Below are positions 2,882 through 21,649 of a stretch of DNA of 31,599 bases, piece by piece. The position numbers were made by a program, and so were the translations under genes. Location of the stretch: positions 1-31,599 of IMG/VR virus record IMGVR_UViG_3300025835_000024. One strand, 5' to 3'. This DNA comes from a virus (lineage: Duplodnaviria; Caudoviricetes). Each line of letters begins with the position of its first letter. Positions within the stretch are counted from its first letter, which is position 1. Below the pieces are notes generated by a model, which made no database searches, was not told the origin of the DNA, and saw nothing but the letters and a program-made list of their open reading frames with translations.

Positions 2882-2910
2882 TTGACCCCGGGCGCCCCGT
2901 GCCTTATAGT
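2882..2910 (+). promoter_or_regulatory. sigma70-type promoter for the packaging operon
   Basis: TTGACC-N17-TATAGT, abutting the right arm of the inverted repeat; GGAG at 2941 and ATG at 2954. Confidence 0.75.
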
Positions 2911-3373: not shown

Positions 3374-3384
3374 GGAGACCTCCC

Positions 3385-3804: not shown

Positions 3805-3809
3805 CCTCG

Positions 3810-5117
3810 ATGCGGTTCAAAGTGGCACGGTCCTTGCCGGCCCAGACAGCCTTCTGGACCGACGCGGCGAAGAACCGCGCTTACGTCGGGGGCATCGGGG
3901 CGGGCAAGACCTACGCCGGCGCCATCGAGATCTTGCGCATGCCCCCTCAGTCGCGTGGTATGGTTATTGCGCCGACGTACCCCATGCTCAAGGACGCCAG
4001 CCAGCGCACGTTTTTCGACGTCGCCAGCGACGCAGTCAAGCAGCACAACAAGCAAGAGCAGTACACGATCCTGCGTAACGGCACGACGGTCCTGTGGCGC
4101 AGCGCCGACAACCCCATCCGGTTGCGCGGCCCGAACCTGGGGTGGATCTGGGGGGACGAGTGGGCCTACGCCAGCGACGAGGCCCACAAGGTCGCCCTGG
4201 GCCGTCTGCGCCTGGCGCCGGGGCGCCTGTGGGCCACGACGACCCCCGCTGGCATGAACTGGTTCTACAAGCGCGTGACGGCCCCGAGGTCCAACTTCGG
4301 CCTGCACTTCAGCGCGACGGCCGATAACACGCACCTCCTGCCCGACTACGTCACAAGCCTCCAGGACTACTACGCCGACGACCCCGAGTTCGCGGCGCAG
4401 GAACTGGCAGGCACCTTCGTCGACCTGGCGAACAGCCGGCGGTTCCCCGGCCTCCTTGTCGCGGCCCTCACACGCGAGGGGCCAGGCCTGCGTGACGAGC
4501 TGACCACGGTCTTTGAGGCCGCGCACTTCGGCGGCCGCTACGTCATCGGGGCGGACCCGGCCGAGGGCATTCGGGGCGGCGACGACAGCGCGGCCGCCGT
4601 GATCGACGTGGACACACGCAACGTCGTGGCCTACCTGGCTGCGGAGCTGGAGCCCGTGGACGCTTTCCCAATGGCGCTGGCAGCGTTGTCGCGGAGGTAT
4701 AACAACGCCCCAGTCATGGTGGAGCAGAACGCGATGGGCCGCACTGTGATCAAGCGTCTGGCCGTGCATGGCCCCGAGGTCCCGCGCCTGAGCGGCCCCG
4801 GCGAGGGCCCGGGGTGGCTTCAGACGCCCACGACCAAGGCGCAGATGTGGGCCACGGCCTACCGGTCCCTGGTGTCCAGCAAGCAGCTCGGGCGACAGCC
4901 CCTGCGCGGGGAGCTCCTGGTCAACCAGATCCGGAGCGTCGAGCGCACCACCCTCGCTGGCGAAGGCAAGGGCAAGCGCACCAAGGTTGACGACCTGGCC
5001 GTGGCCTGGGCGTTGGCTGAGTGTGGAGCTACGGCCCTGGAGGGTGGTAGCTTCGTCGCGCTGGACTCGCACCTGGCCGTGAGGGTTCACCCGGTTATGG
5101 ACCTTGACGGCTGGTAG
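3810..5117 (+). CDS. terL: Terminase large subunit (alternative start TTG 3801)
   Basis: Walker A GGIGAGKT, IAPTY, LRGPNLGWIWGDE (Walker B), TTTP (motif III), nuclease motifs IGADPAEG..DDSA, VEQN, DDLAVAWALA. Confidence 0.96.
   Translation: MRFKVARSLPAQTAFWTDAAKNRAYVGGIGAGKTYAGAIEILRMPPQSRGMVIAPTYPMLKDASQRTFFDVASDAVKQHNKQEQYTILRNGTTVLWRSADNPIRLRGPNLGWIWGDEWAYASDEAHKVALGRLRLAPGRLWATTTPAGMNWFYKRVTAPRSNFGLHFSATADNTHLLPDYVTSLQDYYADDPEFAAQELAGTFVDLANSRRFPGLLVAALTREGPGLRDELTTVFEAAHFGGRYVIGADPAEGIRGGDDSAAAVIDVDTRNVVAYLAAELEPVDAFPMALAALSRRYNNAPVMVEQNAMGRTVIKRLAVHGPEVPRLSGPGEGPGWLQTPTTKAQMWATAYRSLVSSKQLGRQPLRGELLVNQIRSVERTTLAGEGKGKRTKVDDLAVAWALAECGATALEGGSFVALDSHLAVRVHPVMDLDGW
3823..3838 (+). promoter_or_regulatory. 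sigma54-like -24/-12 motif inside the 5' end of terL
   Basis: TGGCACGGTCCTTGCC matches TGGCACG-N4-TTGC; its intragenic position makes function uncertain. Confidence 0.4.
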
Positions 5118-5147
5118 CTAGTGCACTACTTTGGCATGGACGCTGCA
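5104..5147 (+). promoter_or_regulatory. Tandem sigma70-like (5104-5132) and sigma54-like (5132-5147) motifs upstream of portal
   Basis: TTGACG-N17-TACTTT followed by TGGCATGGACGCTGCA (TGGCAT-N5-CTGCA); ATG at 5181. Confidence 0.55.
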
Positions 5148-5180
5148 AGCGCAGCACAACCCATACCAAGGCACTAAACC

Positions 5181-6767
5181 ATGGAAACTGTGCTAACGCC
5201 GGACGTCGACGTCAAATTGACCGTGGCCGACATCAACACGGGCGAGTACACGGTCAACTGGCTCAAGCCCATCGGCACCACCGGCATGCCGTGGTCCGGA
5301 GGTCAGCTGTTCCTGGAGCGCAACCCCAAGTACTATCCGATCGCGGCTCGTGGCCAGGGGGCGCCTGGAGTCTTCTGGGACCTCCAGTACCTCCCCCAGG
5401 TGCAGACGGCACTGCGGCGGCCCCTCCGGGCGATCCTGTCGTTGCCCTATCGCATCGAGCCGGCGGAGCCCCCGGATTGGGCCAGTGACGAGGACTACGC
5501 GGCCGCTGAGCGCCACTGGGGGCTCTGCCAGCGGGTCTTCCACAGCCTCACCTCCGACCGCATGGCCTTCACCAAGATGCTCCGGGAGATCTTTACCACC
5601 GCAGCGGTGGGGGGGAGTTACCTCGGCGAGCTCGTCTGTGACGAGAGGGTCTACGACTTCGAGGGGCCGGAGTACCGGTACTGGATCCCACGGCACCCCG
5701 AGCTGCGCGCACCCTGGACCGTCAGGCACTGGCTCACGCAGGGCGAGCGACCCGTCGGCGTAGTGCTTGACAGCGCCCGCGCCCGCGACTACTCCGGCGG
5801 GGGTGGCCCGAGCTGCGCCGTGATCCCGTGGCGCAAGCTCATCCACGTGGCCAACGAGTACACCGGTAGCAACCTGGAGGGCGTGTCGTGGCTGCGGCCC
5901 GTCGCCAACCTGATCAAGATGATCCAGCAGGCCTACATCACTCTCGGCCTGGCCAACGAGATCAACGGGATCGGCGAGCTGTGGTTCACACTTCCGGAGG
6001 GCATGAACGCCGCAGACCCCGTCGCCGAGCGGCTGATGCAACATATCCGGCTCCGCAAGTCCGGCCAGTCCTCGGGGGGTGTGGCACCCTACGGCACGGC
6101 CATCCAGGCCATCTCGCCGCAGGCGACCATGCCCAACATGGAGCCGTCTCTGACCGCCCTCGAGAAGGGCATCCTGATGGGGATGGACTCGATCGACACC
6201 ACCATCGCGACGGACGGTGTGGGGTCGTATGCTGCCAAGGTCGAGGGCGGGGCCGAGCAGCGCGACGGGCTGGATTACATCGCCCAGGAGTTCGCGGCCT
6301 TCCCGGTCGAGCAGATCTTGCGCAAGGCGATCGAGATCAACTACCCCGGGGACGTCGCGGCCGGCCGCGTCTTCTGCCCCACGGTCCAGTGGGGCGTCGT
6401 CGAGGAGCGGGACAACGACACCTACATCAACACCCTGGTCGCGGCGTACCAGGGCGGTCTCCTGACCGAGGCCGACATAGCCAAGGCGCGCCCGGTGATC
6501 CGGGAGCTGTTAGACCTCCCCGAGCCCAACAGCGAGGGCGAGGCGGGGGCTGGAGCCGACGCGGTGGGGGACGACGACGACCTCCGGAGCGGGCAGTTCC
6601 AGGACACGGGCAGCGTGGCCCGTATCTTCGGGGTCCGGGCGAGCACCATCAACAACTGGCGCGCCCGGGGGCTGGTCGACGGCCGCAAGATCGGGGGACG
6701 CTGGCGCATCGACGTTGCCAGTGTCCGGCGGTTGTTGACGCCGGCCGAGGCCTCGTTGGAAAAATAA
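5181..6767 (+). CDS. Portal protein (Mu gp29/DUF935-like) with C-terminal excisionase/MerR-like HTH
   Basis: Follows TerL, 528 aa; IPWRKLIHV...NLEGVSWLRPV, GSYAA and IRELLDLPEP are DUF935-like portal patterns; tail TGSVARIFGVRASTINNWRARGLVDGRKIGGRWRI is an HTH_17-like motif. Confidence 0.88.
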   Translation: METVLTPDVDVKLTVADINTGEYTVNWLKPIGTTGMPWSGGQLFLERNPKYYPIAARGQGAPGVFWDLQYLPQVQTALRRPLRAILSLPYRIEPAEPPDWASDEDYAAAERHWGLCQRVFHSLTSDRMAFTKMLREIFTTAAVGGSYLGELVCDERVYDFEGPEYRYWIPRHPELRAPWTVRHWLTQGERPVGVVLDSARARDYSGGGGPSCAVIPWRKLIHVANEYTGSNLEGVSWLRPVANLIKMIQQAYITLGLANEINGIGELWFTLPEGMNAADPVAERLMQHIRLRKSGQSSGGVAPYGTAIQAISPQATMPNMEPSLTALEKGILMGMDSIDTTIATDGVGSYAAKVEGGAEQRDGLDYIAQEFAAFPVEQILRKAIEINYPGDVAAGRVFCPTVQWGVVEERDNDTYINTLVAAYQGGLLTEADIAKARPVIRELLDLPEPNSEGEAGAGADAVGDDDDLRSGQFQDTGSVARIFGVRASTINNWRARGLVDGRKIGGRWRIDVASVRRLLTPAEASLEK

Positions 6768-6779
6768 GCACCGAGGGGC

Positions 6780-6838
6780 TTGCAGTTGGCACAGAGTGTG
6801 AGTAACTTGAGCCCGTGGCGTATGGCACGCTGTTTGCT
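6780..6838 (+). promoter_or_regulatory. sigma70-like promoter (6780-6808) and consensus sigma54-like motif (6823-6838) upstream of protease/capsid genes
   Basis: TTGCAG-N17-TAACTT (spacer begins TTGGCAC); TGGCACGCTGTTTGCT is an exact match to TGGCACG-N4-TTGCW; intergenic. Confidence 0.6.
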
Positions 6839-6847
6839 TGAGGCACC

Positions 6848-7957
6848 ATGCTCAGTATCTACCCCATCCAAGACTCCCGCCCGTCCAACTGGCTTCGGCT
6901 CGTCCGAGGCCCACGCTTCGTAGCGCCCGACGGCACGCCCGTCCAGGCGGACAAGGCCTGGATGGATAAGCGGGTCGCGGAGTACCGCCGGTTGACGTCG
7001 GCTGGCTACGTCGTGCCCGTGATCACGGGGCACGATGCCGCGTTGACGGACCAGCGCGCTCTCGGCGACGTGCTAGACATGACCGTGGCCGAGGTGGATG
7101 GGGAACTGGAACTCGTCGTGGCCGTCGCCTGGAACGACGAGACGGTTCCAGCGGACATCGCGTCGCGCAAGATCAAGTATGTCAGTCCGAGCTTTAGCTC
7201 TTACACGGATGAGCGGGGGGAGTCCTACGTCCTCGTGCTCTCCGAGGTCTCTATCACGGCCCGTCCCCACCGCAAAGGCGCGGCCACCCACATCCTCATG
7301 TCGGAGGCAGTTATGCCTGATTCTATCGTCGTGCCGGACCCCGCGTCGGCCCCTGCGCTCCCCTCGACGGAGGAGCGTATCGTCTCACTGGAGGCCGCGA
7401 TCACGGATCTCACTGAGGGCTTCGCAGGCCTCCAGACCATGCTCCAGGATCTGGTCGAAGCCAAGACCGACCCCGAGGAGCCGGCCGAGACCCCCCCGGC
7501 TAACTCGCCGCCGGCCGAGGCGACCGCAGCCCCACCCACGGCCGGAGAGATCAAGATGGCTGAGGCCAACGCCAAGCTCAACCTCCAGCTCCAGGAGGCC
7601 GAGCGGAACCTGGCCGTCGCCAAGCGCGCGGAGCGCCGGGCGTCCTTCGACCTGCGGTACCCCGTGGGTGCCGTGATTGAGATGACAGAGGCTTCGCGCG
7701 ACCTTTTCTTCACTCTGGCCGAGGCCAGCCCCGAGGCCATCAACGCCCTGACCATCCAGGCGGTCAAGCCCGGAGCGGAGGGCCAGCCCGCCGGCCCTCC
7801 GCACCGTAGCTCCGTGCCGTGGGGGATCGCCATGGGCGAGAGCGCCCACACCCCCACGCCGGCCATTGAGAGCGACGGCGAGCTCCTGACCCGGCTCCGG
7901 AAGGAAACCGGGTCCGCCGGCGCGGCCCTCGAGCAGTTCAAGCGTCTCCGGGGTTAA
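6848..7957 (+). CDS. Prohead protease/scaffold (Mu gpI-like)
   Basis: PVITGH, IKYVSPSF, LSEVSITARPH protease-type motifs; C-terminal Pro/Ala linker and coiled coil; sits between portal and capsid. Confidence 0.85.
   Translation: MLSIYPIQDSRPSNWLRLVRGPRFVAPDGTPVQADKAWMDKRVAEYRRLTSAGYVVPVITGHDAALTDQRALGDVLDMTVAEVDGELELVVAVAWNDETVPADIASRKIKYVSPSFSSYTDERGESYVLVLSEVSITARPHRKGAATHILMSEAVMPDSIVVPDPASAPALPSTEERIVSLEAAITDLTEGFAGLQTMLQDLVEAKTDPEEPAETPPANSPPAEATAAPPTAGEIKMAEANAKLNLQLQEAERNLAVAKRAERRASFDLRYPVGAVIEMTEASRDLFFTLAEASPEAINALTIQAVKPGAEGQPAGPPHRSSVPWGIAMGESAHTPTPAIESDGELLTRLRKETGSAGAALEQFKRLRG
7313..7957 (+). CDS. Nested in-frame scaffolding protein (internal start)
   Basis: GGAGG (7303-7307) 5 nt before in-frame ATG 7313, right after the protease domain, as in Mu I/Z and lambda C/Nu3. 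Confidence 0.6.
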   Translation: MPDSIVVPDPASAPALPSTEERIVSLEAAITDLTEGFAGLQTMLQDLVEAKTDPEEPAETPPANSPPAEATAAPPTAGEIKMAEANAKLNLQLQEAERNLAVAKRAERRASFDLRYPVGAVIEMTEASRDLFFTLAEASPEAINALTIQAVKPGAEGQPAGPPHRSSVPWGIAMGESAHTPTPAIESDGELLTRLRKETGSAGAALEQFKRLRG

Positions 7958-8022
7958 CCCCGTGGCGGTGTTGATTTAGATCCCATACCCGGCCCTTTGG
8001 CCCCCCGATAGAGGCAAACACC

Positions 8023-8940
8023 ATGGCCACCATCCTCCCATTCATCGCTGGCACGGACCTCTCGTCCAGCCAGTACCTGCTCGTCAAGAGCGACGGTACC
8101 GACTCCGAGCGAGTCATCGTTGCGACGGCCGCGAGCGACAACCAGATCGTTGGCGTCCTGGACAACGCCCCCGGCGACGAGGGCATCGCGGACGTGGTCC
8201 TGTCCGGGATCTGTAAGGTCCGTGCCGGTGGAGCCCTGGAGCCCCACGACTACATCATGTGGGGCACCGGAGGCAAGGCGGTCAAGTACGTCGCCGGATC
8301 CGGCAACATCTGCCTGGGGCGCTACATCCCGGAGGTCGCGGACGCTGGCGGCAGCAAGAGCTACCGTGACGCGGCCGCGACCGACCTGGTCACCATCGAC
8401 CTCCAGGTCGGGCTCCAGGTTGCGGACGTCAAGACCACGGCGGAGCTGGCGTCCACCGCAGGCGCCGGGCTGATCGGGATCCTTGACACCGCCACGGACT
8501 ACACGGCGACGACCGTCGAGGGTGCCCTGGCCGAGGTCAAGATCATCGCGGACGCTGCGGCCCCCAAGGCCTCCATCCGGCGGGCCGTCGGCACCGCCGG
8601 CGCGGACGCTGGCAGCAGCATGCCGGTTGCCGTCCAGATCGAGGACGGCAACGGAGCCAGCGTCGCGGCCGTGACCACGGTCCTGTGCGAGATCTTCGAC
8701 GCGGACATGATCCTGGGCCTTGCGGCCGCGTGGACCCTGGCCGAGACCGGCGTCGGCGCGGAGGTCACCGCGTCCGCACACGCCACCCTGCTGATCACGA
8801 CCGACGCCAACGGCGCCGCCACCGTGACTGTCTCGGATGTGGTTACGGGGACTAATGAGACGGTGCGTCTCAAGATGACTGTGATTCCGGGCGAGGGTGA
8901 AATCGGCCAGCCGACCTTCACCGTGTGCGACTTCAACTAA
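8023..8940 (+). CDS. Capsid decoration/cement protein (DUF2190-like) extended into a probable head fibre
   Basis: N-terminal IVGVLDN...ADVVLSGICKVRAGGAL..GGKAV beta-tulip-like pattern; GAGLIGI..TTVEGALAEV fibre-type motif; beta-rich C-terminus; immediately before MCP; GAGG RBS. Confidence 0.7.
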   Translation: MATILPFIAGTDLSSSQYLLVKSDGTDSERVIVATAASDNQIVGVLDNAPGDEGIADVVLSGICKVRAGGALEPHDYIMWGTGGKAVKYVAGSGNICLGRYIPEVADAGGSKSYRDAAATDLVTIDLQVGLQVADVKTTAELASTAGAGLIGILDTATDYTATTVEGALAEVKIIADAAAPKASIRRAVGTAGADAGSSMPVAVQIEDGNGASVAAVTTVLCEIFDADMILGLAAAWTLAETGVGAEVTASAHATLLITTDANGAATVTVSDVVTGTNETVRLKMTVIPGEGEIGQPTFTVCDFN

Positions 8941-9027
8941 TGATTTGACCCGGGCACCCCCAGGGCGCCCGGCTTCGACGTTCAACCAAGGGGGTGCCCA
9001 GTCCCCCGCCACTATATGGAGGCCCCG

Positions 9028-10053
9028 ATGGCCAACCCCTATATCTCCCCGGTCGCGGATGTGGCTCTCACCATGGTGGCGGAGAGCTGGCACGACCGAA
9101 ACGAGGCGCGATACATCGCGCCCAAGCTCCCCCAGGTGCAGGTCCGTGGCCTGCGGTCGCAGCACAGCGGCATCACGACCTACAGCCTGGCTGCCCGCGA
9201 CAACTACTTGCTCAAGGCTGGCAAGGGCCGCAGCTACCGCCCCGGCCAGGATCTGCGCCCCGCCCGCGCTCTCGGCGAGCGGTCCGTGACGATCACGTTG
9301 ACCAACGAGGCCAACGACCCGACCCCGTTCCCGCTCCCCCGCGATGGGCAGTCCAGTCGGTTCGCGGACTACAGCTCGGTGATCGCGCAGCACCTGTTCG
9401 AGCTCTACTCCCGGCGGGACCAGGCCGTGATCACGGCCATGGCCAACAACACCCTGTTTGGCGACGGCGCGGGCGGCCCGGCCTCGTGGAGTGGCACCGA
9501 CGTGCTGTCCCTCCCCGACAGCGACGGCACCCAGACCCCGATCCGGGACATCGACAAGTACATGCTCACCCTGAAGCCGTTCACCCGCCGTGGGGACCTC
9601 CGCCAGGTGGCGTGCGCGGACCTGCTCACCCTCCAGACCCTGGCCAGCAAGCCCGCCTACCACGGCGGCGGCGCGGGCAGTGGTGTGAGCGCCCGCCTCA
9701 CGAACCTGGAGATCGTGGACCGACTGAAGGCCCTCCACGGCTTCGACGAGGTCTGGATCTCCGATCTGCCCGCCGACACCGTCTTCGACGGCCAGACCTC
9801 GGCCCCGTCCCTCATGGCGACCACGCCCTTTTTCTGGATGGGCCTGGTGGCGGAGGGTAACTTCGATCTCACCAACATGATGCCCCTGAGCCTGCCGGAT
9901 GGCGCCATCGTGATGGCCCAGGAGTTCAGTCCATGGGTCGACCGGATCGAGGACCCCACGACGGAGAGCCTGCTCTACGTGGGCAAGGACGCCTTCCAGG
10001 CGGCGACGCCCCGTGCTGCCTTCGGCCGGTGCATCACGGGGAATTTCCAGTAA
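9028..10053 (+). CDS. Major capsid protein
   Basis: 341 aa from ATG 9028 with GGAGG RBS; position after scaffold/decoration; YIAPKLPQVQV, SWSGT..TPIRDID, LKALHGFDEV resemble gpE/Mu-gpT-like capsids. Confidence 0.8.
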   Translation: MANPYISPVADVALTMVAESWHDRNEARYIAPKLPQVQVRGLRSQHSGITTYSLAARDNYLLKAGKGRSYRPGQDLRPARALGERSVTITLTNEANDPTPFPLPRDGQSSRFADYSSVIAQHLFELYSRRDQAVITAMANNTLFGDGAGGPASWSGTDVLSLPDSDGTQTPIRDIDKYMLTLKPFTRRGDLRQVACADLLTLQTLASKPAYHGGGAGSGVSARLTNLEIVDRLKALHGFDEVWISDLPADTVFDGQTSAPSLMATTPFFWMGLVAEGNFDLTNMMPLSLPDGAIVMAQEFSPWVDRIEDPTTESLLYVGKDAFQAATPRAAFGRCITGNFQ

Positions 10054-10071
10054 GCCCCGTAGCTGCGGGGC
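10054..10071 (+). terminator. Small GC hairpin directly after the MCP stop
   Basis: GCCCCG-TAGCTG-CGGGGC; no U-tract, so possibly an mRNA-stabilising or partial terminator. Confidence 0.35.
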
Positions 10072-10110
10072 CGTGAGGCCCCCGGCTCGGTTCACCATGA
10101 GGGTCCGTCC

Positions 10111-10599
10111 ATGACTGCGACCGCACTCCAGACCTTCGGGATCACGAGCACCATCCTGGCGGCCTACCTGCCACAGGTGGGGTTCGAAGGCGCCGACGAC
10201 CTGTTGACCACCGCTCGGGTGGCGCAGCTCGTCGAGGACGCCAGCTCCGAGGTCTGTGGGTATCTGGTCGCGGCGGGCGTCGACGTCACAGCCTTGGCGG
10301 CGGACACCTCGTCTGGGGCCTACAAGCTCATCCAGCGCGTGATCGTGCGCCAGTCTATACCACTGGTGCTGCTGGCCATCTCTGGCAACCCAGACCAGAT
10401 CGAAGCGGCCGAAGAGCGTGCGGCCACAACGCTCAAGCGCCTCCTGGACAACCCCGCCCTGCTTGGCTACGACGACCCGGTAGGGCAGACGCCCTGCGCC
10501 CGGACGACGACCGACGACTACTCCACCCTGAGCGCCACCAACGCTGCCGTGGCGCGGGAGTGGGGCATCACGCCGACCAGTGGCCCCATCCCCTGGTAG
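10111..10599 (+). CDS. Head-tail adaptor/connector protein
   Basis: 162 aa helical protein after MCP; QLVEDASSEVCGYL resembles Mu gp36/HK97 gp6-type adaptors; GAGGG RBS. Confidence 0.6.
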   Translation: MTATALQTFGITSTILAAYLPQVGFEGADDLLTTARVAQLVEDASSEVCGYLVAAGVDVTALAADTSSGAYKLIQRVIVRQSIPLVLLAISGNPDQIEAAEERAATTLKRLLDNPALLGYDDPVGQTPCARTTTDDYSTLSATNAAVAREWGITPTSGPIPW

Positions 10600-10615
10600 G
10601 GTCCGGAGGTACACC

Positions 10616-11008
10616 ATGGCCTACAGGTCCAACGCACAAGTCAAGTCGGGCGGGGGTCTTCGGTTCGACAAGTTCCGGGCGGCCATCGGGGCCGCCCAGG
10701 CCGCCGTTGACCCTGCCAAGATGGGCAACAAGGCGAAGTTCCTCGACTTTCTCGACCGTGAGGTCGTGGCCTTTTATCGCTCTCGCGGTGGGGCGATCTC
10801 AGTCGTGACAGGCGCACTGCGTCGGGCGCTGACCGCGACGAACGACAGCGCCCGCGAGATCACGATCTCGGGCCGCACGATCAGGCTCGTGATCCTCCAC
10901 CCCGGCGCGGCCGTGTGGGGCGCCCCCAAGGTTATGCCCGTGATCGACCTCGGCAAGGTGGCTGCTGAAGCCACCCGCAAGTACCACGAGTGGGAGAAGA
11001 GCCAGTGA
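10616..11008 (+). CDS. Putative neck/tail-completion protein
   Basis: GGAGG RBS then ATG 10616; basic protein with VVTGALRRAL motif typical of HK97 gp10/virion morphogenesis-like proteins; synteny. Confidence 0.5.
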   Translation: MAYRSNAQVKSGGGLRFDKFRAAIGAAQAAVDPAKMGNKAKFLDFLDREVVAFYRSRGGAISVVTGALRRALTATNDSAREITISGRTIRLVILHPGAAVWGAPKVMPVIDLGKVAAEATRKYHEWEKSQ

Positions 11009-11625
11009 CCGCGCACGTCGCCTCATACGCCTCCGAGGTTGAGGAGCGAGCGCACTCCGTGCTCACGGACGCATGGACCGACGTCCTGGCTGCCGTCGCG
11101 GCGCGCCGGTCCCTGACCACGATCGACATCGGGCCACCCCTGACCCAGAGCACCGTGGAGCTTGGGCCGGACCTGGCCGCCCCGGTGGATGGGATGGTCG
11201 AGATCGCCCCGGCCTTCGAGGACGACGTGCGGCCGCCGCAGCGCTACCCGGCTGTCCGGGTCGCCGTGGTGGACTCGGACGAGGTCTACGGTGTCAACGC
11301 CGGCGCGGGGCGCGCCCTACACACCCTCGAGGTCCGGACGCTGGTCCGGGTGTCGAGCCGGGCCGGGACCATCGGCGCGACCAAGGGGTGGTCGGCGTCC
11401 ACGGCCAGTCTGATCTGCGGCCTGACCCACCGCATGGCGGTCTACCTACTCCAGGCGGGCCTGACCGACGACACCACCGGGATCTACAACGTCGAGTCGA
11501 CGTCCGGTGGATCTCGCGACCTGGTCCAGGGCGACGACGTCACGATCTACCGCGCCACGTCCACCCTGGGCGTCTGGCAACGCACACGCTCGGGGAGGTT
11601 TGACCACCCCGTCACCGATAGCTAG
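11005..11625 (+). CDS. Putative tail terminator protein
   Basis: GTGA overlap with upstream stop; RYPAVRVAV motif; directly upstream of tail tube. Confidence 0.5.
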   Translation: MTAHVASYASEVEERAHSVLTDAWTDVLAAVAARRSLTTIDIGPPLTQSTVELGPDLAAPVDGMVEIAPAFEDDVRPPQRYPAVRVAVVDSDEVYGVNAGAGRALHTLEVRTLVRVSSRAGTIGATKGWSASTASLICGLTHRMAVYLLQAGLTDDTTGIYNVESTSGGSRDLVQGDDVTIYRATSTLGVWQRTRSGRFDHPVTDS

Positions 11626-11636
11626 GAGGCCCTCCC

Positions 11637-12719: not shown

Positions 12720-12729
12720 CGGAGGCCCC

Positions 12730-13074
12730 ATGTTCAGTACGCTGTTCAGTTCTATCCGCGTCGAGGTCGCTCCCGGTCTTGACGCTCTCGTCATGTCGGA
12801 GCCAACCGTCGGAGTCCTCCGCGCGTTGGGTCGTGCCGTGACTGCCGCCGGAGGCAACCTGACCCCAGTGGAGGACGCCGCGCTCTGCGTGGCGCTCATG
12901 GTGACGGCGTGGGAGGGCGCGGGCGCCCCCGGCGCCGACGCCTGGCCCCCGCTCAGCCCCGAGGGCGTCGCCACGCGGCTCGCCACCGTCGACGCCTTGC
13001 CTCGAGGAGTCCTCGTGCGGCTCGGGCAGGAGTGTGGTGCGGCCCTCCGCCTGAGCGCTGCCGACTCGGACTGA
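12730..13074 (+). CDS. Tail assembly chaperone (gpG-like)
   Basis: GGAGG RBS; 114 aa between tube and TMP. Confidence 0.7.
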   Translation: MFSTLFSSIRVEVAPGLDALVMSEPTVGVLRALGRAVTAAGGNLTPVEDAALCVALMVTAWEGAGAPGADAWPPLSPEGVATRLATVDALPRGVLVRLGQECGAALRLSAADSD

Positions 13075-13469
13075 TCCGGCGTGCCGTCCGGTTGACCCGA
13101 GGGCGGCTCGCAGGGTACAAGGGGACCACAGACTGCGCGACCTGCCCGGTCAAGACCCGGTTGGGTCGCCGGTGCGACCGCCCCATGACGCGCCCCCCGC
13201 GTTGGGAGGACGCCCGGTGGGACTCATGGACGGCGGCGCTGGCACGGGTGCAGGGCCCGTCGACGTGTCCGGTCCGTTCCATCGAGGACCACCCCCTGGG
13301 GGCATGGATCGTGCAGGTCCTGGTGGACGCGCGGTCGGTCGAGCGAGGCTACCTGCTCCGGGCAGGCGGGCTGGAGGATCAGCCAGCCCGGTGGTGGGAG
13401 GCGGTGCACCTGGTGATCGCGGAGGTCGCCCGGTGTGATGCCGAGGCGGCTGAGGAGGCAGCACGATGA
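13071..13469 (+). CDS. Second tail assembly chaperone segment (gpT-like), in the -1 frame; start uncertain
   Basis: Open -1 frame overlapping the gpG-like stop; GYLLRAGGLEDQPARWWEA motif typical of pre-TMP proteins; stop overlaps TMP ATG (ATGA). Confidence 0.6.
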   Translation: MIRRAVRLTRGRLAGYKGTTDCATCPVKTRLGRRCDRPMTRPPRWEDARWDSWTAALARVQGPSTCPVRSIEDHPLGAWIVQVLVDARSVERGYLLRAGGLEDQPARWWEAVHLVIAEVARCDAEAAEEAAR

Positions 13470-15193
13470 GCAACACCCGCGAGACCCTCACGCTGGACGT
13501 CAGGGGCAATGCGGTCAAGGCCCTCGGGGCTATCGACCGCAAGCTCGATCAGGTCGCCAAGAGCGCGAGCCAGGCGACCTCCGGCCTTGGGGCCATCACG
13601 TTCGACGCGGCCAAGGGCGCGGCCTTGGGTGCGTTCGGGGCCGCCGTAGGCGCGGCGGTGCTCAGCTTCCAAAAGCTCGGCGAGGTCGTGGGGAGCTCCC
13701 TGTCCCGAGCCGTGGCGGGGTCTGAGGAAGCCACCGCAGCGTCGGCGAGGATGAGCGCCGAGTGGGAGCGCATGGAGCTCACCCTGGGCCGGGCCTTGCT
13801 CGGGCCCGACGGGGGGGCCGCCCTGTTTGAGGGGCTGGGGCAGGTGGTCGCCACGGTGACGGCGGCCATCAGTGCCAACGTGAAGTCGTTCGGCGGGGCC
13901 TTCGAATACGTGATCCCCGTCATCAAGACTGTGGCGGTGGTGGTCGCGACTATGGCGGCTGCGGGTTTTACACCACTGGCACTGACGATTGACGCCGTGG
14001 TGCTGGCTGCCACCACGTTGTACGCAGGGTTTCTTGCCCTGAAGGCGGGGGCGCGGATCGCGGAGGAGGGGCTGGTGGCGCTGTCCACGCGGCTCGGGGT
14101 CACCAGTGATGAGGACCTGGCGGCGGCGCAAGACGCGACCAAGGCCGCCGCCAAAGAGTTTGACGAGTTCAAGATCTCGTCGGCCGGGGCGACCGAGGGC
14201 CTCTGGGACCTACGTGCGGGCATCATCGGGGTCGTGGACAGCACGGGGCAGTTGATCCCCGCCCTGGACCGCACGGCGAAGCTCCTAGAGGAGAAGTACA
14301 AGGCGGCGTTCAAGGGTCGGCAGGAGCTCGCGGCGTGGCTCGACATGAGCCCCGACGAGCTCGAGGCCTACGCCGAGCTGAACCAGCAGATCAGGGACAA
14401 CACCGCGTCAATCAACGCTTACGCGAACCTCGGTCTGGAGCCGGCAAAAGGGGCGTCGGCGGGTGCGGCCGAAGCCACGGTGGAACTGTCGGAGGCCCTC
14501 GGCCTGGAGGCCACCGCCCTGCTGCGGGTGTCCTACGCGCGCGAGCAGGCCACGGCGTCCTTCATCTCGGAGCAGCAGGCGCAGGAGGAGTACAACAAGG
14601 GCCTGGAAGCATCCCTGGAATCCCGCGCCGACGCGGTGCGGGAGCTGTCAGACGCCGAGACCGCCGCCGAGGTGGCTCGACAGCAGGCCGCCGAGAAGGA
14701 CAAGAACAACCAGCGCGGAGAGCAGATCGCCTCCACCCGCGACGCGCTGAGGGGGCTGGCGGGCGACACGGCCACCCTCACAGCCAACACCCTGACCCTG
14801 GCGGCGAGCACGGCGTTGGCGGGGGGGAGCCTGGCGGGCATGGGGCAGGCGTTCGCTGCGTCCCTGGGGGACCTGTTTGTCAAGGTCGGTACGGGGCTTC
14901 TGGTCGCGGGGTCGGGACTCTCGGCCCTGTTCGAGGGCAACCCCGGTGGTGCCATCGCGTGGGGTGCCGGACTGATCGCGGTGGGTGTGGCCCTGGGGGC
15001 CATCGGCAAGGCGGGGTCGAAGGGCGCCAAGCCCTCGGCCAGCGGCGCCGCCGGCGGAGCGTCCCTGGCTCGTGCGGCCGCGCCGCAGCAGACGACCCAA
15101 CGCGACCGGTCGGAGACCGTGATCGTAGTCAACCTCGGCACTCGCGAGATCGCTCGTGAGATCCGGGACATGGGCCGGAGGGGCCAGATATGA
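13466..15193 (+). CDS. Tape measure protein (575 aa)
   Basis: Ala/Gly-rich helical protein with hydrophobic segments, N-terminal LTLDVRG and C-terminal VIVVNLGTREIAR; canonical position. Confidence 0.9.
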   Translation: MSNTRETLTLDVRGNAVKALGAIDRKLDQVAKSASQATSGLGAITFDAAKGAALGAFGAAVGAAVLSFQKLGEVVGSSLSRAVAGSEEATAASARMSAEWERMELTLGRALLGPDGGAALFEGLGQVVATVTAAISANVKSFGGAFEYVIPVIKTVAVVVATMAAAGFTPLALTIDAVVLAATTLYAGFLALKAGARIAEEGLVALSTRLGVTSDEDLAAAQDATKAAAKEFDEFKISSAGATEGLWDLRAGIIGVVDSTGQLIPALDRTAKLLEEKYKAAFKGRQELAAWLDMSPDELEAYAELNQQIRDNTASINAYANLGLEPAKGASAGAAEATVELSEALGLEATALLRVSYAREQATASFISEQQAQEEYNKGLEASLESRADAVRELSDAETAAEVARQQAAEKDKNNQRGEQIASTRDALRGLAGDTATLTANTLTLAASTALAGGSLAGMGQAFAASLGDLFVKVGTGLLVAGSGLSALFEGNPGGAIAWGAGLIAVGVALGAIGKAGSKGAKPSASGAAGGASLARAAAPQQTTQRDRSETVIVVNLGTREIAREIRDMGRRGQI

Positions 15194-16035
15194 GCCTGAC
15201 ACAGCCCGTGTTCCTGCATCCGATCACGATCCCGACGGCCTACGCCGGCGCCGGGGCGCTGTTGACCCTCAACGCTGCGCCGGTCACCCTCGCTGCGGGC
15301 ACGTACTACTGGGCCGAGACCGAGGGTTCGGCCGGGAGCTTCAACGCGGCTCTGGTCACCGCGCTCAACGCCGCCATGGCGGGCACATGGACGGTGCGCT
15401 TCGGCGCGACGTTCCGGCTCACGATCGCGTACACCGGCGCTTCCACGCCCACCACACTGGCCTTCGTCGCGCCGACCGTGCTCGGGCTTGGGATGCTCGG
15501 GGGCGCGGAGGACCCGGAGTCGACGAGTTCCGCCAGCTTCACCGCGAAGTCCTGGACGGGGGCGTGGGACTGCCGGTGGATGTGGCGGCCCGTCGAGTGG
15601 ATCATCGACGACCGCACCATGCCCCGTGCGGCGGTGGTCGTCGCCCGGAGCCCTTTTGACGGGACGGCGACGATCGACGACTACGGCGCCTGGGACGAGC
15701 GGACCCTGCGCCTGGAGGGCGTCCGGGGGGCCTACGTCTTTGACTGGGCGGCTGGACGCTCGCCCTTCTACGTCGAGGCCGGATCGGGCTCGGCGCTGGT
15801 CAACAACACCCTGGAGACCTTCTGGCGCGACGCGCGCCGCTTGTCCTCGGCGCCGGGGACGATCCGGTACCTGGCCAACGGTCAGGACGACTTCGGCGCG
15901 TACGAGTGGGAGGGCCTGGTCTGGAGCGACCCGGAGCAGCTCGGCAACCTGGCTGAGTGCCTTGAGGAACTGAACCCGTCGCCGTTGCTGTACACCGTGA
16001 CCCTGCGCCTGCTCGACACGGGGGTGGCATCATGA
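15190..16035 (+). CDS. Putative distal tail/tail-tip protein
   Basis: ATGA-coupled to TMP; beta-rich 281 aa; synteny only. Confidence 0.55.
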   Translation: MSLTQPVFLHPITIPTAYAGAGALLTLNAAPVTLAAGTYYWAETEGSAGSFNAALVTALNAAMAGTWTVRFGATFRLTIAYTGASTPTTLAFVAPTVLGLGMLGGAEDPESTSSASFTAKSWTGAWDCRWMWRPVEWIIDDRTMPRAAVVVARSPFDGTATIDDYGAWDERTLRLEGVRGAYVFDWAAGRSPFYVEAGSGSALVNNTLETFWRDARRLSSAPGTIRYLANGQDDFGAYEWEGLVWSDPEQLGNLAECLEELNPSPLLYTVTLRLLDTGVAS

Positions 16036-18287
16036 CGTTGTCGATCTTCGAGGGCGGGTCCGGAGGTGGGAACCGCTGGATCATCGGGATCAAGATCTCG
16101 ACGATCGGGGACTCGTCGACCAGTCCGATCGACGGTCGGTACCGCCTGGCGAGCGGTGTGCCCACGTGGGATAGCTCCAACATGTACCGTTCGGCCCTGG
16201 TGGGCTGGCCCGCCGAGATCACGTCGACGGTGGACTACCGGGGCGGCGCGACCACGATCGGCGGCCTGGACCTGGACCTACTCCGGACGGACGAGGTTGC
16301 CGGGTGGCTCCAGCGCGTCCGCTTCAACAAGGTCTCCCAGCTCAACCTGGGTATCGCGGCCGCAGGGACGACGGTCGTCCTGGACACAGCCGTGGGCGAG
16401 GGTGTCGACGTCGTGATCGGGCGGGAGGTCCTCCTGCTCGGGACGGAGTCTGGGGCGGGTCCGTACACGTACACCGACTGCGCGCGGGGGCGTCTGGGGA
16501 CGATTGACGCGGCCCACGGCGAGACCGGGGTGTCCATCGCGCTCCAGCCCTTGGTGGACGCCGAGGTCTACCTGGCGGGCGAGGCCCCGATCTACGACCT
16601 GCCGGTCGAGCTGTTCGTCGTCGATGCGGTCGACGGTGGATACGACGACGAGGAGACCTTGTGGACCGGCGTGATCCACGGGGTGCTCTGGGACGGAGCC
16701 AAGGGCGCCCTGCGCCTCACGCTGGACTCGGCGCTGGACATCCTTGGTCGCACCACGTTGCTCCGGCGCCAGTGGAGGTCGCGTGGGGGCGCCGGGACGC
16801 TCGCCTGGCGCGGCTCCGGAGAGCCCGTCGGCGACACCATGACGCACACACCCGGCGACGACGAGATCACGTACCGGACCTGCCTGCTGTACGACGGGAC
16901 CTACTGCCTGCGCTCGGGCGTGAGACGTATTGGTGTCGGGCCTGAGTGGATGCACTCACTCACCGGGCGCGACGTGCCCGCCGATCCCGTGCTCTTCGGC
17001 GGAGGCGCGCCCTTGCCCCCGGCGGCGGACGACGGTGGGATCGGTTACTTCGGGGACCAGTTCCGCCAGGTCTTCGCCGCCGCCCCGGGCGCGCCTGCCG
17101 TCAACGACGCCGGCGCCACCCTGTCGACCAACGCCATCACGCTGGCGCTCCAGCTGTTGACGACCACCGCGACGGGAGGCAACGGCGCCTATGATCTCGG
17201 TGTGGAGGACCTCGGGTGTGGGATCCCGGCGTCACTGATCGACGTGGCCGGGATGGAGGCCCTGGCCGCGATCGCGGGGGACGGAGTGGACCTCGACGCG
17301 TGGTTCCTCGGCCTGGATGGCAAGCCTGTGAAGGCCGTGGACGCGATCGACAGCGCGATCCTGGCCTTCGGGTTGCGCCTGGCCCCTCGCGAGGGGGGCA
17401 AGATCGGCCTGGCCTGGCTCGTCGACGGGGCGATGGACACCACGGCGATCGGCGAGGCCGCGCTCATGGAGCCCCCAGCGACGGACTACCGCGCGGTGCC
17501 CGCCGTGTCGGAGGTGACGGTCTCGTGGGACGAGCGGCCGGGGCTGGAGGCGCGGTCGTCGGTCTTCCGGGCAGGGTACTCCGTCTCCCGCTCGGTCGGC
17601 GGGGCCAACACCGCCATCGAGATCAAGGCGCCGGGGATCCGGAGCGCCCGCGTCGCGGAGGCCCTGGGGCAGGACTGGACGACGCTGTACTACGTCCCGA
17701 TCCCGGTCGTGACTCTCGTCGCCCGCCGCACGGTGTCCCTGTGGCCTGGCGACGCGGTCCAGTTGACGCACGGTGTCATGTCCGACGCGGTGGGTGTCCG
17801 GGGCCTGGTCGACGGCGGCGGCGTCGTGGCGAGCCGGACCCTGTCCCTGGAGGCCGGGACCATCCGCTACACGATCTGGTGGACCGGGGCGCGGTACGGG
17901 CGCATTGGGCGCATTGGGCCCTCGGCGCGGGTCGCGTCTTACTCGGCCCCCGACGTCACGGCGGAGGTCAACGCCTTCACCTCGGCGTTGGGCTCGCCGG
18001 CGACCGACACGGCAGCGTGGACGGCGCTCATCACGCTGGCGGGGTCGCTGGCCGTGTTGATCCTCGACTCGGACCTCAGCGTCCGGGGGACCGCCACGCT
18101 GACCACGGCGTCGGGCACGACCCTGACCCTGAGCGCGCCGACGGTGGACCCGGTGGCGGGGGACGTGATCGTCCTGGCGGCCTACGACGCAGTAGGGGCC
18201 GAGGAGCAGGCGCGGTACGCGTACCTGGCCGCCGCCGCTGAGACCCTGGGGAGCGCGTCTGACGACGCGTACGAGTGGACCACATGA
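16032..18287 (+). CDS. Putative tail-tip hub/central tail protein (751 aa)
   Basis: ATGA-coupled; CARGRLGTIDAAHG motif and LWPGDAVQLTH OB-like segment seen in phage tail proteins. Confidence 0.6.
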   Translation: MTLSIFEGGSGGGNRWIIGIKISTIGDSSTSPIDGRYRLASGVPTWDSSNMYRSALVGWPAEITSTVDYRGGATTIGGLDLDLLRTDEVAGWLQRVRFNKVSQLNLGIAAAGTTVVLDTAVGEGVDVVIGREVLLLGTESGAGPYTYTDCARGRLGTIDAAHGETGVSIALQPLVDAEVYLAGEAPIYDLPVELFVVDAVDGGYDDEETLWTGVIHGVLWDGAKGALRLTLDSALDILGRTTLLRRQWRSRGGAGTLAWRGSGEPVGDTMTHTPGDDEITYRTCLLYDGTYCLRSGVRRIGVGPEWMHSLTGRDVPADPVLFGGGAPLPPAADDGGIGYFGDQFRQVFAAAPGAPAVNDAGATLSTNAITLALQLLTTTATGGNGAYDLGVEDLGCGIPASLIDVAGMEALAAIAGDGVDLDAWFLGLDGKPVKAVDAIDSAILAFGLRLAPREGGKIGLAWLVDGAMDTTAIGEAALMEPPATDYRAVPAVSEVTVSWDERPGLEARSSVFRAGYSVSRSVGGANTAIEIKAPGIRSARVAEALGQDWTTLYYVPIPVVTLVARRTVSLWPGDAVQLTHGVMSDAVGVRGLVDGGGVVASRTLSLEAGTIRYTIWWTGARYGRIGRIGPSARVASYSAPDVTAEVNAFTSALGSPATDTAAWTALITLAGSLAVLILDSDLSVRGTATLTTASGTTLTLSAPTVDPVAGDVIVLAAYDAVGAEEQARYAYLAAAAETLGSASDDAYEWTT

Positions 18288-20029
18288 CTGTACGCCCCAT
18301 CGACACCGCCTCTGCCGCCCTCGGCGCCGACGCCCAGCTCGCCAGTGCCATCCTGACCTACGCCGCCGAGACGGGACGGGCCGCGCTGGCGGACTGCACG
18401 CGGTCCTGCACGGCGACCTACGATTACCGCCACCCGCCGCTCCTGCACTCGGTCCCGGCCGGACAGGAGGAGTGGGCGGACCCTGACGCCCAGCTCGGGT
18501 GGCTCGTGTACCTCTGGCGGGCGGGACCCGGCGCGGACTCGCTCACGGTGCGAGTCCGGTGCACGCACTCCGACGTCACGGGGGGGACCATGGGGCTGCA
18601 CGTCACGCCCCTGGACGACTACTACGCCCGTCGCGTGCTGCCGCCGGCAATCGACACGGACGCCGGCGCCGCCGGCGAGACCACGGTCACCCTGACCGCG
18701 ACGGACCTGGAGCTGGTCGAGGGCGACCTGTACGTCGTCGCGGTGTCGTGGGCGTCGACGCTGCACAGCGTCTCCGAGCTGTGGTTCGACGCCGACACCG
18801 TGGACGGCGGGGGCCTCCCGACCGGCGGGTCGGGGTTTGACGACTGGGCCTACGACTACCTCCGGAGCGCCAACGGCCAGACCACGTATTGGTGGGACGG
18901 GTCGACGTTCGCGGCCTTCGCCGACGCGACGGTGCCCTACCTCGTTGAGATCCTCGAGGGCGCCGCCTACGCCACGGTGGCATGGTCCACGGGCAAGGCT
19001 GCGGACGGTAAACCCTTGCCCAATGGCAGGCTCGCCCACCGGACCGGCCTGAACCTCGCGCGCTTCGGCGTCATCGCCGATTTCATCCACGTGTTCCCGT
19101 CGCTCGAAGAGCGATCGTCCCTGTACGAGGGGACGCTCACGACCGCGAACATCTGGGTCCGTCGCACGGCTCTGAGCTACGTCAAGGTTCACGGTGTCGA
19201 GATCCTCGAGGGCGTCGTGGCCCCGAGCGCCCTCGGCGCTCGCCTGGCGCCGGAGCAACCGACGTCCATCAGGGCGTGGCGGTCGGCGTCTCAGTACGCA
19301 GAGACCGTGGTCGGTCACCGGTCCCGGCCCCTGGCGATCGCCCCGACCCCGGACTACTCGGCGACGGAGCCCCACCACTACAGCCCCGACGACCCCCGAG
19401 CCATTGTGGGTTATCGCCAGCTCGCCCTGCCGGTCCACCGACTCACGACGACCTTCGGCACGGTCTTGCTCGTGCCGTGGGGCGAGCTCGCGCAGGTCAA
19501 CACCGGTGGGGTCGACTACATCGGTCGGGACCTGCTCGTGGCCCTCGTCGCGGAGGTTTTCTTCGCGGGGGACGCCGGTGTGCCGGGCGAGATCACGTTG
19601 GTCTGGGACGCGTGGAGCGTCGTCTACGGCTCGACGACGCGGCCCCCGGCCGCACACCAGGTCGAGGTCATCGCGACGACGACGCCCTACGACCGACCGC
19701 GTGGGGAGGACTCGCACGCGGCGCAGTGGTGGGGGTTGGTGACACCCAACGACACCGACGGCTCCATGCCTGTGCGCCACTCCGGCGAGGCCTGCGTCTG
19801 CCCGACCGTGCTGTCGAGCGAGGCCCCGTCGCGGGTGGAGCTGCGGGTGCCCGCCAGCGCCGTGCGGGCCGTCGAGCCCGAGAACCAGCTCGCCCTCCGC
19901 GTCAAGAGCCCCGGTCGGAGTTCCACCGGGACGCCCTACGGGACGACCGCGCGGGTGTACCTCCGCGTCGTCGCCCTGTCCGTCTGCACCGTGCCGTCGC
20001 TCGACGCGACGGACCTGGAGGCTACATGA
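18284..20029 (+). CDS. Putative virion tail protein (581 aa)
   Basis: ATG 18284 overlaps upstream TGA; strong GC3 bias; within tail block; no family recognised. Confidence 0.55.
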   Translation: MTVRPIDTASAALGADAQLASAILTYAAETGRAALADCTRSCTATYDYRHPPLLHSVPAGQEEWADPDAQLGWLVYLWRAGPGADSLTVRVRCTHSDVTGGTMGLHVTPLDDYYARRVLPPAIDTDAGAAGETTVTLTATDLELVEGDLYVVAVSWASTLHSVSELWFDADTVDGGGLPTGGSGFDDWAYDYLRSANGQTTYWWDGSTFAAFADATVPYLVEILEGAAYATVAWSTGKAADGKPLPNGRLAHRTGLNLARFGVIADFIHVFPSLEERSSLYEGTLTTANIWVRRTALSYVKVHGVEILEGVVAPSALGARLAPEQPTSIRAWRSASQYAETVVGHRSRPLAIAPTPDYSATEPHHYSPDDPRAIVGYRQLALPVHRLTTTFGTVLLVPWGELAQVNTGGVDYIGRDLLVALVAEVFFAGDAGVPGEITLVWDAWSVVYGSTTRPPAAHQVEVIATTTPYDRPRGEDSHAAQWWGLVTPNDTDGSMPVRHSGEACVCPTVLSSEAPSRVELRVPASAVRAVEPENQLALRVKSPGRSSTGTPYGTTARVYLRVVALSVCTVPSLDATDLEAT

Positions 20030-21219
20030 GCCTGACCATCCCCACGACCCACACCCGCCCCGACACGCGGACCACCGGCGTCTGGCGCGGCGGCGCGATC
20101 CGTGCGACGCAGGTTGCCGCCCTCGCGGCCAACGCCATCCACGCCTACGCCCTCGGCGCCCGGCGCACCGCGCTATCCCTGCGGGCGATCGACGTTGTGG
20201 GGCAGGCGACGTACACGACCGTCGCCAAGGTTCCCTTCGCCTTCGCTGCGGGGCGCGAGGCGGTGGGGCTCCAGATCGTCGTGCAGTTGGACAACGCCGA
20301 CGTGCGGATCACGCTCCGCAACGCCACGGACACCGTGGACCTGGCGACGTGGACGGACGCGTCCACGGGGACCGGGACCGTGAAGGCCTCCGTGGGGCCG
20401 TCCGCCAGCGCGGACGTCCTGGTCAAGATCGAGGCGCGAGAGCACTCCGGCGCCGGCGGGACGATCCCGCTGGTGCACCTGTACGAGCGCGGCCACACGC
20501 AGTACACGTATCCCAACGCCGTCCTGGACCACGTGGCCATCGCGCAGTCGTATGCGTGGGATCACGTCTGGTCCTTTGACGCCGCCGGGACCAGCACCGA
20601 GGACGTGGGGGGCGTGGGGGGCTCGACGTTGACCCGCACGGCCAACGTCACCAACTACGCGCCGATCTACGATGGCACGCGAGGCTACGACCGAATCACG
20701 GTGCACGCGGCGTCGACCGGAGACTACTCCGGCAACATCAACGTCTCGCGCACGAGCGACTGTTTCTTCGAGGCCATCTTCACGCTGCCCGAGGCGCAGA
20801 CCGCCGCCGGTGTTTACACCCTCGCGGCGGTGGGGCAGGGCACCGCCGCCAGCGGCTTCTGTTTGATCCGATACTATGCCACCGCCGACGTCGTGCGGGT
20901 CTACAACGCGCCGGGGTCATCGCTGATCGCGGCCCTGACCGGCCTGAACGCCGCCACGCTCGCAGCCGGGCCGGTGTACATCGCCGTGTGGTGGGACCAC
21001 GCGGCGTTGACTTATCGGGTCTACTGGAACGCCGGCGCCGGCGAGACTGCGCTGTCCGCCGCCGGTGGCGCGGGGGCGGGCTCGACGGCCCGACCCATCG
21101 GCCTGGGATACTCGACCGCCGACTCCAGCGCCAAGATGGGTGTGCATTACGCCGCCTTTAGTCGGGGTGAGCCCGACGCGACTTACCGCAGCCTCCAGTA
21201 CGCGGCACGCGGCTGGTGA
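20026..21219 (+). CDS. Putative receptor-binding/tail protein with C-terminal LamG/ConA-like beta-sandwich (397 aa)
   Basis: True start ATG 20026 (GGAGG RBS, ATGA overlap) rather than 19276; HVWSFD, FFEAIF, YIAVWWD..YRVYWN, IGLG resemble LamG-like domains. Confidence 0.6.
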   Translation: MSLTIPTTHTRPDTRTTGVWRGGAIRATQVAALAANAIHAYALGARRTALSLRAIDVVGQATYTTVAKVPFAFAAGREAVGLQIVVQLDNADVRITLRNATDTVDLATWTDASTGTGTVKASVGPSASADVLVKIEAREHSGAGGTIPLVHLYERGHTQYTYPNAVLDHVAIAQSYAWDHVWSFDAAGTSTEDVGGVGGSTLTRTANVTNYAPIYDGTRGYDRITVHAASTGDYSGNINVSRTSDCFFEAIFTLPEAQTAAGVYTLAAVGQGTAASGFCLIRYYATADVVRVYNAPGSSLIAALTGLNAATLAAGPVYIAVWWDHAALTYRVYWNAGAGETALSAAGGAGAGSTARPIGLGYSTADSSAKMGVHYAAFSRGEPDATYRSLQYAARGW

Positions 21220-21228
21220 CGCTGGCAC

Positions 21229-21257
21229 TTGCGCTTGGCACGGTTTGTGCCTATACT
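21229..21257 (+). promoter_or_regulatory. sigma70-type promoter with a sigma54-like/palindromic site filling its spacer
   Basis: TTGCGC-N17-TATACT; the spacer contains TGGCACGGTTTGTGCC (21236-21251); in the only sizeable intergenic gap of the tail/lysis region. Confidence 0.65.
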
Positions 21258-21331: not shown

Positions 21332-21649
21332 ATGGCCAGCAATCAGTGTCTCGTCCGATCCTCCGGCCCCCTCCAGATCGCGGCTGCGTCGGTGACGCAG
21401 GCCACGGTCTCCCTCACGACCGTGGACAAGGAACTGCTGGCCCCAGGGACGTACCGCTGGATCTTGATCCAGAACCGGGGCACCACTGCGGCCTACCTGT
21501 CCCTCGACGGGGGTGCGGCCGTCGTCGCGGACGGCTTCGAGCTTCTGCCTGGTGGCACCCACCGCCAGGAGGCGACGGTCCTCGGGGCGGGGATCCGTGG
21601 GATCCGCAGCTCCGGCACGGGCAACGTCATCGTCGCGACGGGGGTCTAA
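21332..21649 (+). CDS. Small beta-sandwich virion-type protein (105 aa)
   Basis: GGAG RBS, ATG 21332; RWILIQNRGTTAAYL...GFELLPGG pattern of small jelly-roll-like phage proteins. Confidence 0.6.
   Translation: MASNQCLVRSSGPLQIAAASVTQATVSLTTVDKELLAPGTYRWILIQNRGTTAAYLSLDGGAAVVADGFELLPGGTHRQEATVLGAGIRGIRSSGTGNVIVATGV

Follow-up and report, generated by a model that had tools for sequence, protein, structure and literature searches.

Sigma-54-type sites on sigma-70-like late promoters of a tailed phage and their possible role in promoter occlusion

The window analyzed here, the whole 31,599 bases of IMG/VR record IMGVR_UViG_3300025835_000024, is a tailed-phage contig with 69% GC (94% complete by the estimate of the record). 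The plus-strand arm carries a primase-like gene and the terminase, portal, head and tail genes; the minus-strand arm encodes a family A polymerase and a helicase. Sites with the −24 and −12 elements of the host sigma factor sigma-54 were found on or just behind the predicted sigma-70-like promoters of three late units in the plus-strand arm. Whatever their effect, these are very probably real sigma-54 binding sites. The explanation ranked first, to which we give a probability of roughly 0.4, is that inactive host sigma-54 holoenzyme would block the sigma-70 late promoters until replication dilutes it.

The sequence-only reading of the window listed four plus-strand 16-mers with GG-N10-GC spacing, at 3823, 5132, 6823 and 21236, and all four were found as described. 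A loose rule is uninformative: TGGC-N9-GC has 29 matches on the plus strand and 14 on the minus strand. The strict pattern TGGYAYR-N5-TGC, chosen post hoc after the sites had been seen, has six matches in the window (3823+, 3956+, 5132+, 5168−, 6823+ and 21236+), five of them in line with the late genes, against a background mean of 0.33–0.44 and a maximum of 3 in 900 Markov simulations. With other spacers the same pattern gives no match (N3, N4, N6 and N7), two matches (N2) or one match (N8). A scan with a scoring matrix, as proposed in the sequence-only reading, was performed with a matrix derived from 261 sites of other phages; it recovered the six strict sites at scores of at least 12, where the background mean is 0.18, and the next weaker match, at 29056, scores 9.7. 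Four of the six strict sites fall in the 1,227 bases of non-coding DNA, where 0.01–0.02 are expected. A seventh, degenerate site at 6787 (matrix score 5.8) has the form GG-N10-GA and lacks the −12 C. This site, the one at 3956 and a backward site at 5153–5168 had been overlooked in the earlier list.

The pattern TTG-N3-N16/18-TA-N3-T was used for sigma-70-like elements, and all start positions given here are predictions from consensus distances. It has seven matches in the window, six at or in intergenic gaps and one intragenic, and three more in a stretch missing from the window. The sequence-only reading had placed such elements, with overlapping or adjacent motifs, ahead of three late units, and they are indeed present at 5104, 6780 and 21229. 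The portal gene promoter (5104..5132, +; predicted start ~5139) carries a forward site over its predicted start (5132..5147, +) and, five bases on, the backward site (5153..5168, −), so that the two form a head-to-head pair; the backward site also serves as 3′ arm in a predicted RNA hairpin. The promoter of the protease/scaffold unit (6780..6808, +; predicted start ~6815) has the degenerate site in its −35/−10 spacer (6787..6802, +) and, in the leader, the only perfect 12/12 site (6823..6838, +). The promoter of the last plus-strand unit (21229..21257, +; predicted start ~21264) contains a site in its spacer (21236..21251, +; predicted start 21262), in the same register as 6787. At both promoters the site occupies the 17 bases of the spacer in one and the same register, which places the predicted sigma-54 and sigma-70 starts two bases apart (6813/6815 and 21262/21264). 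In all, five sites lie on or just behind the three promoters, two in spacers, one over a predicted start, one backward and one in a leader, and at each of the three predicted promoters a site falls within the footprint of the sigma-70 holoenzyme. The TTGGCA sequence as a second −35 box was ruled out by inspection, there being no −10 at 17 bases.

The fourth sigma-70-like promoter of the plus strand, that of the terminase unit (2882..2910, +), has no full sigma-54 site. The sites are thus present at three of the four plus-strand promoters; the five remaining intergenic matches, located in the replication arm and the missing stretch, have none. A comparison of 3/3 with 0/6 promoters carrying sites gives p = 0.012 for a grouping made post hoc. 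Four other late gaps (57–97 bases) are devoid of sites, in contrast to the three promoter-bearing gaps, and no sigma-54-type site occurs in the 492-base non-coding block at 2462–2953 or in the 2.6-kb missing stretch. The replication-arm promoters at 25496..25524 (−) and 29775..29802 (−), both without a sigma-54 site, share with a third one (~3545–3575, −, on contig L007, described below) the motif GTCACTAA, which runs into the −10 box and is possibly an early operator.

The two remaining sites lie within the gene for the terminase large subunit (TerL; 3801..5117, +; family match). The first (3823..3838, +; codons 8–13) agrees with the consensus at 11 of 12 bases and contains rare codons (GCA 5%, TTG 9.5%). 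The second (3956..3971, +) is written in four rare T-ending codons with a joint frequency of 4e-5.

A relative with an 81% identical portal protein (G006; 16.8 kb, ending in the tail genes) contains six strict matches against 0.17–0.28 expected. It retains the 3823 site (first 15 bases identical), both portal sites including the backward one, and the start-codon-adjacent 6823 site at the same position; in the spacer of its 6780 promoter the counterpart of the degenerate site is an intact GG-N10-GC. The site at 3956 is absent there, two additional intragenic sites are present, and the terminase promoter region has only the half site TTGGCAC. A second relative, L008, has a 68% identical portal protein and different terminase and replication genes. 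In it both sigma-70-like elements persist, with the −35 box and spacing of the portal promoter kept as in G006, and most sigma-54 sites are lost: the 6823 site is absent, and the portal promoter has only a −24 box with TTGT in place of the −12 element. The conservation suggested as a check in the sequence-only reading therefore holds for the sites at TerL, portal and protease in the 81% relative, and the 68% relative keeps only part of one. No relative covering 21236 was found, as a scan with a tail protein gave only the same phage and a scan with the polymerase one weak locus.

The same motif occurs in clusters, or arrays, in other phages. A scan of viral contigs for head-to-head pairs gave 127 loci in 26 of 64 parts of the collection (~300 estimated), two of them from this phage, against one locus for a control head-to-head pattern with six-base spacers. 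The first 80 array loci hold 521 single sites in 409 kb against 6 controls. In 298 neighbouring sites for which only TGG-N9-TGC was fixed, the other consensus positions are strongly biased (C 0.83, A 0.89, Y 0.94, R 0.95, T at −15 0.76, W at −11 0.90), in agreement with the sigma-54 consensus TGGCAC...TTGCT (PMC12316311). Of 79 array loci, 35 have TerL within the 3-kb flank, always pointing away from the array; these loci represent 16 of 45 lineages. Array sites are used in both orientations, and the portal pair of the window corresponds to the array head-to-head unit, its 5-base gap being the second commonest in arrays. The motif is common to phages with unrelated terminases, which points to a conserved host protein as the binding partner. 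A sigma-54 DNA-binding domain or activator was found in none of 40 array-phage records searched (10 near complete). Searches of cultured phages with two array sequences as queries found no sigma-54 array; hits in T5-like phages proved to be a different, Fur-box-like motif, and the matching stretches of Caulobacter phage RW, phage nickie and MW202545 contain no array. We found no paper on such phage arrays or on phage late promoters occluded by sigma-54, subscription journals being outside the coverage.

Some further features of the arrays were recorded. Across L093–L219 the gaps are 2–5 bases for head-to-head pairs (search range 3–8), 7–10 for tail-to-tail pairs and 10–12 for tandem sites. In L132 a head-to-head pair (3001–3036) lies between the scaffold and major capsid genes over a weak −35/−10-like pair, resembling the arrangement in the window. 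Single sites precede replication-arm genes in G026 (2195–2210, 6192–6207 and 10214–10229), all facing against the gene direction. The Fur-box-like motif was seen in 9 of 80 array loci (L105, L109, L118, L128, L131, L151, L152, L158 and L160), and similar motifs are clustered within the terminal repeat of phage phiR2-01, which is T5-like (L220 1320–1570).

The sequence-only reading stated that the window encodes no bacterial enhancer-binding protein, the activator that sigma-54 needs, and this was confirmed: PF00158/PF04552 match in none of the three genomes G000, G006 and G007. No sigma-54 activator or sigma-54 domain was found among the four proteins of the missing 2.6 kb, and the window has no consensus site for integration host factor (IHF). 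The last gene of the replication unit (24558..25169, −) encodes a predicted regulator with a Cys/His motif, a sigma-70 region-4-like helix-turn-helix (HTH) resembling AsgB, and a winged HTH; it is possibly a late regulator. Its N-terminal family was found in 48 viral loci. The cellular matches of the family are labelled Myxococcota or its subgroups (9/20), Deltaproteobacteria (3/20) or mixed (8/20), and from these we infer a Myxococcota-like host. The nearest predicted-structure cluster of this protein, a lead only (TM 0.49), is AsgB-like and mostly from Myxococcota; AsgB itself is described as a putative transcription factor in M. xanthus (PMC4320627). The rpoN gene is present in all five Myxococcota-labelled genomes tested, and the strict pattern is weakly enriched in these (23 matches vs 17 in controls). 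Comparison of window positions 1–20000 with 401 genomes of the Myxococcota group gave short weak matches only, none of them spacer-like.

According to the explanation ranked first, host sigma-54 RNA polymerase would bind the sites as an inactive closed complex, and such complexes would occlude the three sigma-70-like promoters of the morphogenesis arm early in infection. Without an activator, sigma-54 holoenzyme is reported to remain in the closed complex, and in vitro sigma-54 lowered sigma-70 transcription by 10–60% at four overlapped E. coli promoters (PMC4551910). Sigma-54 is also able to bind DNA without core polymerase (PMC5626770), a property that may allow both halves of the head-to-head pair to be occupied. 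The most speculative step is release. Genome replication, at six or seven sites per genome copy, could outnumber the free sigma-54, or else the AsgB-like phage regulator could shift the balance towards sigma-70; titration after replication is an inference only. It would be an unlikely outcome that the phage counts its own genome copies in this way, by having the idle sigma-54 polymerase of the host repress the late genes until replication has titrated the limited pool and the promoters open, no phage-encoded transcription factor being needed.

Occlusion was ranked first because one site faces backward and another lies at the ATG, because the sigma-70-like elements persist where sites are lost, and because other phages use the motif without regard to orientation. 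A start about 12 bases after the −12 C does not fit the backward site at 5168 or 3823 and 3956 within TerL, and for 6823 it would lie at ~6849, one base inside the ATG at 6848, which corrects the interpretation of this start in the sequence-only reading. The proposal made there, that host sigma-54 gates morphogenesis, stands insofar as sigma-54-like sites do sit on sigma-70-like late promoters with a geometry that favours its repression branch; this geometry is not decisive, and the conservation is shallow.

Several observations weigh against occlusion. The forward sites at 5132, 6787 and 21236 are in good positions to initiate, and their leaders would be 23, 35 and 70 bases long. In L008 the −10 box of the portal promoter is poor and the −24 box lies at an almost unchanged distance from the ATG, which fits initiation as well. 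Conservation rests on one close relative; L008 is mostly without sites, and none was found at 13 loci with ~30% portal identity or at four distant portal loci from cellular genomes. In array phages 15 of 647 sites overlap a sigma-70-like element, compared with a background of ~4.6%; the overlap being no more than background, occlusion is not a general function of arrays. The sites at 3823 and 3956 are not explained as repressors, because intragenic sigma-54 sites of E. coli did not act as roadblocks (PMC4591121). The putative host group is rich in sigma-54 activators, and the mbhA promoter of M. xanthus has G at −15, as do two of the window sites (PMC12316311). The backward site can be read as a hairpin arm.

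The hairpin concerns the portal leader alone and is compatible with the other readings. It is possible, with the odds somewhat against it, that the inverted pair is kept for an RNA structure: in transcripts reading through from the terminase unit a hairpin would mask the ribosome-binding site, and this may explain the backward site. Folding of the portal leader gives z-scores of −2.5 in the window, −4.3 in G006 and −2.6 in L008; the inner 5-pair stem is retained with a changed loop, and in L008 the stem covers a Shine–Dalgarno-like sequence despite the loss of the backward site. On the other hand, the backward site has kept its exact N5 spacing in the window and in G006, which costs the hairpin an asymmetric internal loop. 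In 120 distinct pairs of other phages the complementarity of the inner bases does not exceed chance (1/120 perfect), and no such fold is seen at 6775–6856 (z 0.5).

Rather doubtful is the reading of the forward sites as productive sigma-54 promoters that a host activator switches on, which would make them dual sigma-70/sigma-54 promoters, possibly with a leaderless transcript from 6823. Besides the mbhA likeness, it would account for the prevailing orientation of the strict sites along the late genes and for the spacer register shared by 6787, 21236 and G006, and Pseudomonas phage YuA is reported to use sigma-54 for its late genes (PMC10914365). However, no phage activator was found in the window, the relatives or the proteins of the missing stretch, IHF consensus sites are lacking, and the upstream DNA where enhancers would lie is coding. 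Activation also offers no explanation for the two sites in TerL, the one at the ATG and the backward one, and in this genome the −12 C of the 6787 site is gone.

Quite unlikely, in our estimate, is a reading of the sites as a small version of the arrays. They would then divert sigma-54 as a decoy, or mark the DNA for packaging or for the handling of its ends, and the promoter overlap would be without regulatory effect. Six of the seven sites do fall within 3 kb spanning TerL and portal, TerL flanks many arrays in a constant orientation, G006 has its two further intragenic sites, and the rare codons suggest selection for the intragenic sites. Yet the window contains no array, its non-coding sites occupy the three promoter-bearing gaps rather than the 492-base block or the four other late gaps, and array sites elsewhere do not favour sigma-70-like elements.

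It is improbable that a phage HTH protein (the portal HTH_17 domain, the AsgB-like regulator or the product of 26027–26275) binds the sites as an operator. The phage does encode at least three HTH candidates, and the 21236 site comes close to a palindrome, matching 7 of 7 bases in one arm and 6 of 7 in the other. But the sites match the asymmetric sigma-54 consensus. Among 15 sites collected from three genomes, none has both outer arms of the palindrome GGCAC-N5-GTGCC offered as an alternative in the sequence-only reading: TGG...CCA does not occur, and in the second arm the outer T and the outer G are present in just two sites each. Phages whose terminases are unrelated have the same asymmetric motif, and the portal HTH is still present in L008, where most sites are lost. 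Where the regulator family is encoded, in 48 viral loci, the excess is weak at most (14 matches vs 3–10 for other spacers in 746 kb), although these loci may not reach the late promoters.

The portal gene (5181..6767, +; family match) ends in the HTH_17 domain, an excisionase-like domain at ~6600–6750 that is annotated in 6 of 10 portal relatives. The following gene (6848..7957, +) likely encodes a Mu-like prohead protease/scaffold, a lead from a phrog_976 match with E 0.01. The first gene downstream of the 21236 site (21332..21649, +) has no family match; family searches gave no convincing match for the genes after 21236 and no basis for the earlier label of a lysis block. Directly after the primase gene, at 2530–2876, lies an inverted repeat with 114-base arms (95% complementary), 11-base iterated units and an AT-rich centre, likely the replication origin; the iterated units are the same in G006 and different in L008. 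A metagenome contig of the same phage, L007, joins both window ends and adds 2,593 bases absent from the window, with a PD-(D/E)XK nuclease gene, two small genes and the start of the primase. The nuclease (L007 2051–3502, −) is Cas4-like, and its C-terminus, at the right end of the window, weakly matches the Acb2/Tad1 hairpin domain (E 1.6e-5, below the cut-off). A 174-amino-acid protein (L007 3562–4086, −) gave only a weak HHH match and no match in a PDB sequence search; by eye it resembles the RNA polymerase alpha C-terminal or a helix-hairpin-helix domain. Several leaders share a GC-rich element similar to GGC-ACCG-CGCC before a GGAG ribosome-binding site (window 2915–2950 and 21265–21290; L007 3505–3540 and 4085–4120), the two leaders in L007 being near-identical copies. 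All 24 runs listed for the phage are groundwater or aquifer DNA, with no RNA run among them. Contigs from four low-share runs yielded no useful variants, no close relative was found among cultured phages, and a portal alignment search of genome contigs found nothing.

The known late switches of phages use phage polymerases, sigma factors, activators or antiterminators. If the occlusion reading is true, a host sigma factor acting as late-promoter repressor would be a different design of such a switch. Unexplained clusters of sigma-54 sites occur in many uncultured phages, in most of them within non-coding blocks without an obvious readout. In the window the sites lie on three short promoters, and therefore three fragments of ~100 bases allow a direct assay of whether such sites repress, activate or only bind.

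Among the closest known systems is sigma-54 repression at argT, chaC, mdfA and patA of E. coli (PMC4551910), where a −24/−12 site likewise lies in the −35/−10 footprint; the −12 C is kept in six of the seven window sites. In contrast to that system, the window is from a phage and has three predicted promoters of one functional class, two of them with two sites each and one of these backward. YuA (PMC10914365; NC_010116) shares the link between sigma-54 and morphogenesis genes, with a promoter ahead of the scaffold gene. Its sigma-54 promoters are reported as activating, whereas the window sites are canonical and overlap sigma-70-like promoters. The three YuA fragments annotated as −24/−12 promoters (L224 38392–38570, 40888–41035 and 47152–47312) have no consensus match, and the whole YuA genome has no matrix match of at least 12; the first fragment has a TTGACC-17-TACAAT element instead. 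The silent and intragenic sigma-54 sites of E. coli (PMC4591121) resemble 3823 and 3956 in being conserved, intragenic and without an activator nearby. They showed no roadblock effect, and the density in the window is far higher, with clustering at packaging genes. The arrays of uncultured phages have the same consensus, the head-to-head unit, the vicinity of terminase genes and the lack of a phage activator in common with the window; in the window, unlike the non-coding arrays upstream of terminase, the sites are dispersed and written into promoters. The arrangement is a variant of the known competition between sigma-54 and sigma-70 at promoters, tied to an unexplained and widespread feature of phages.

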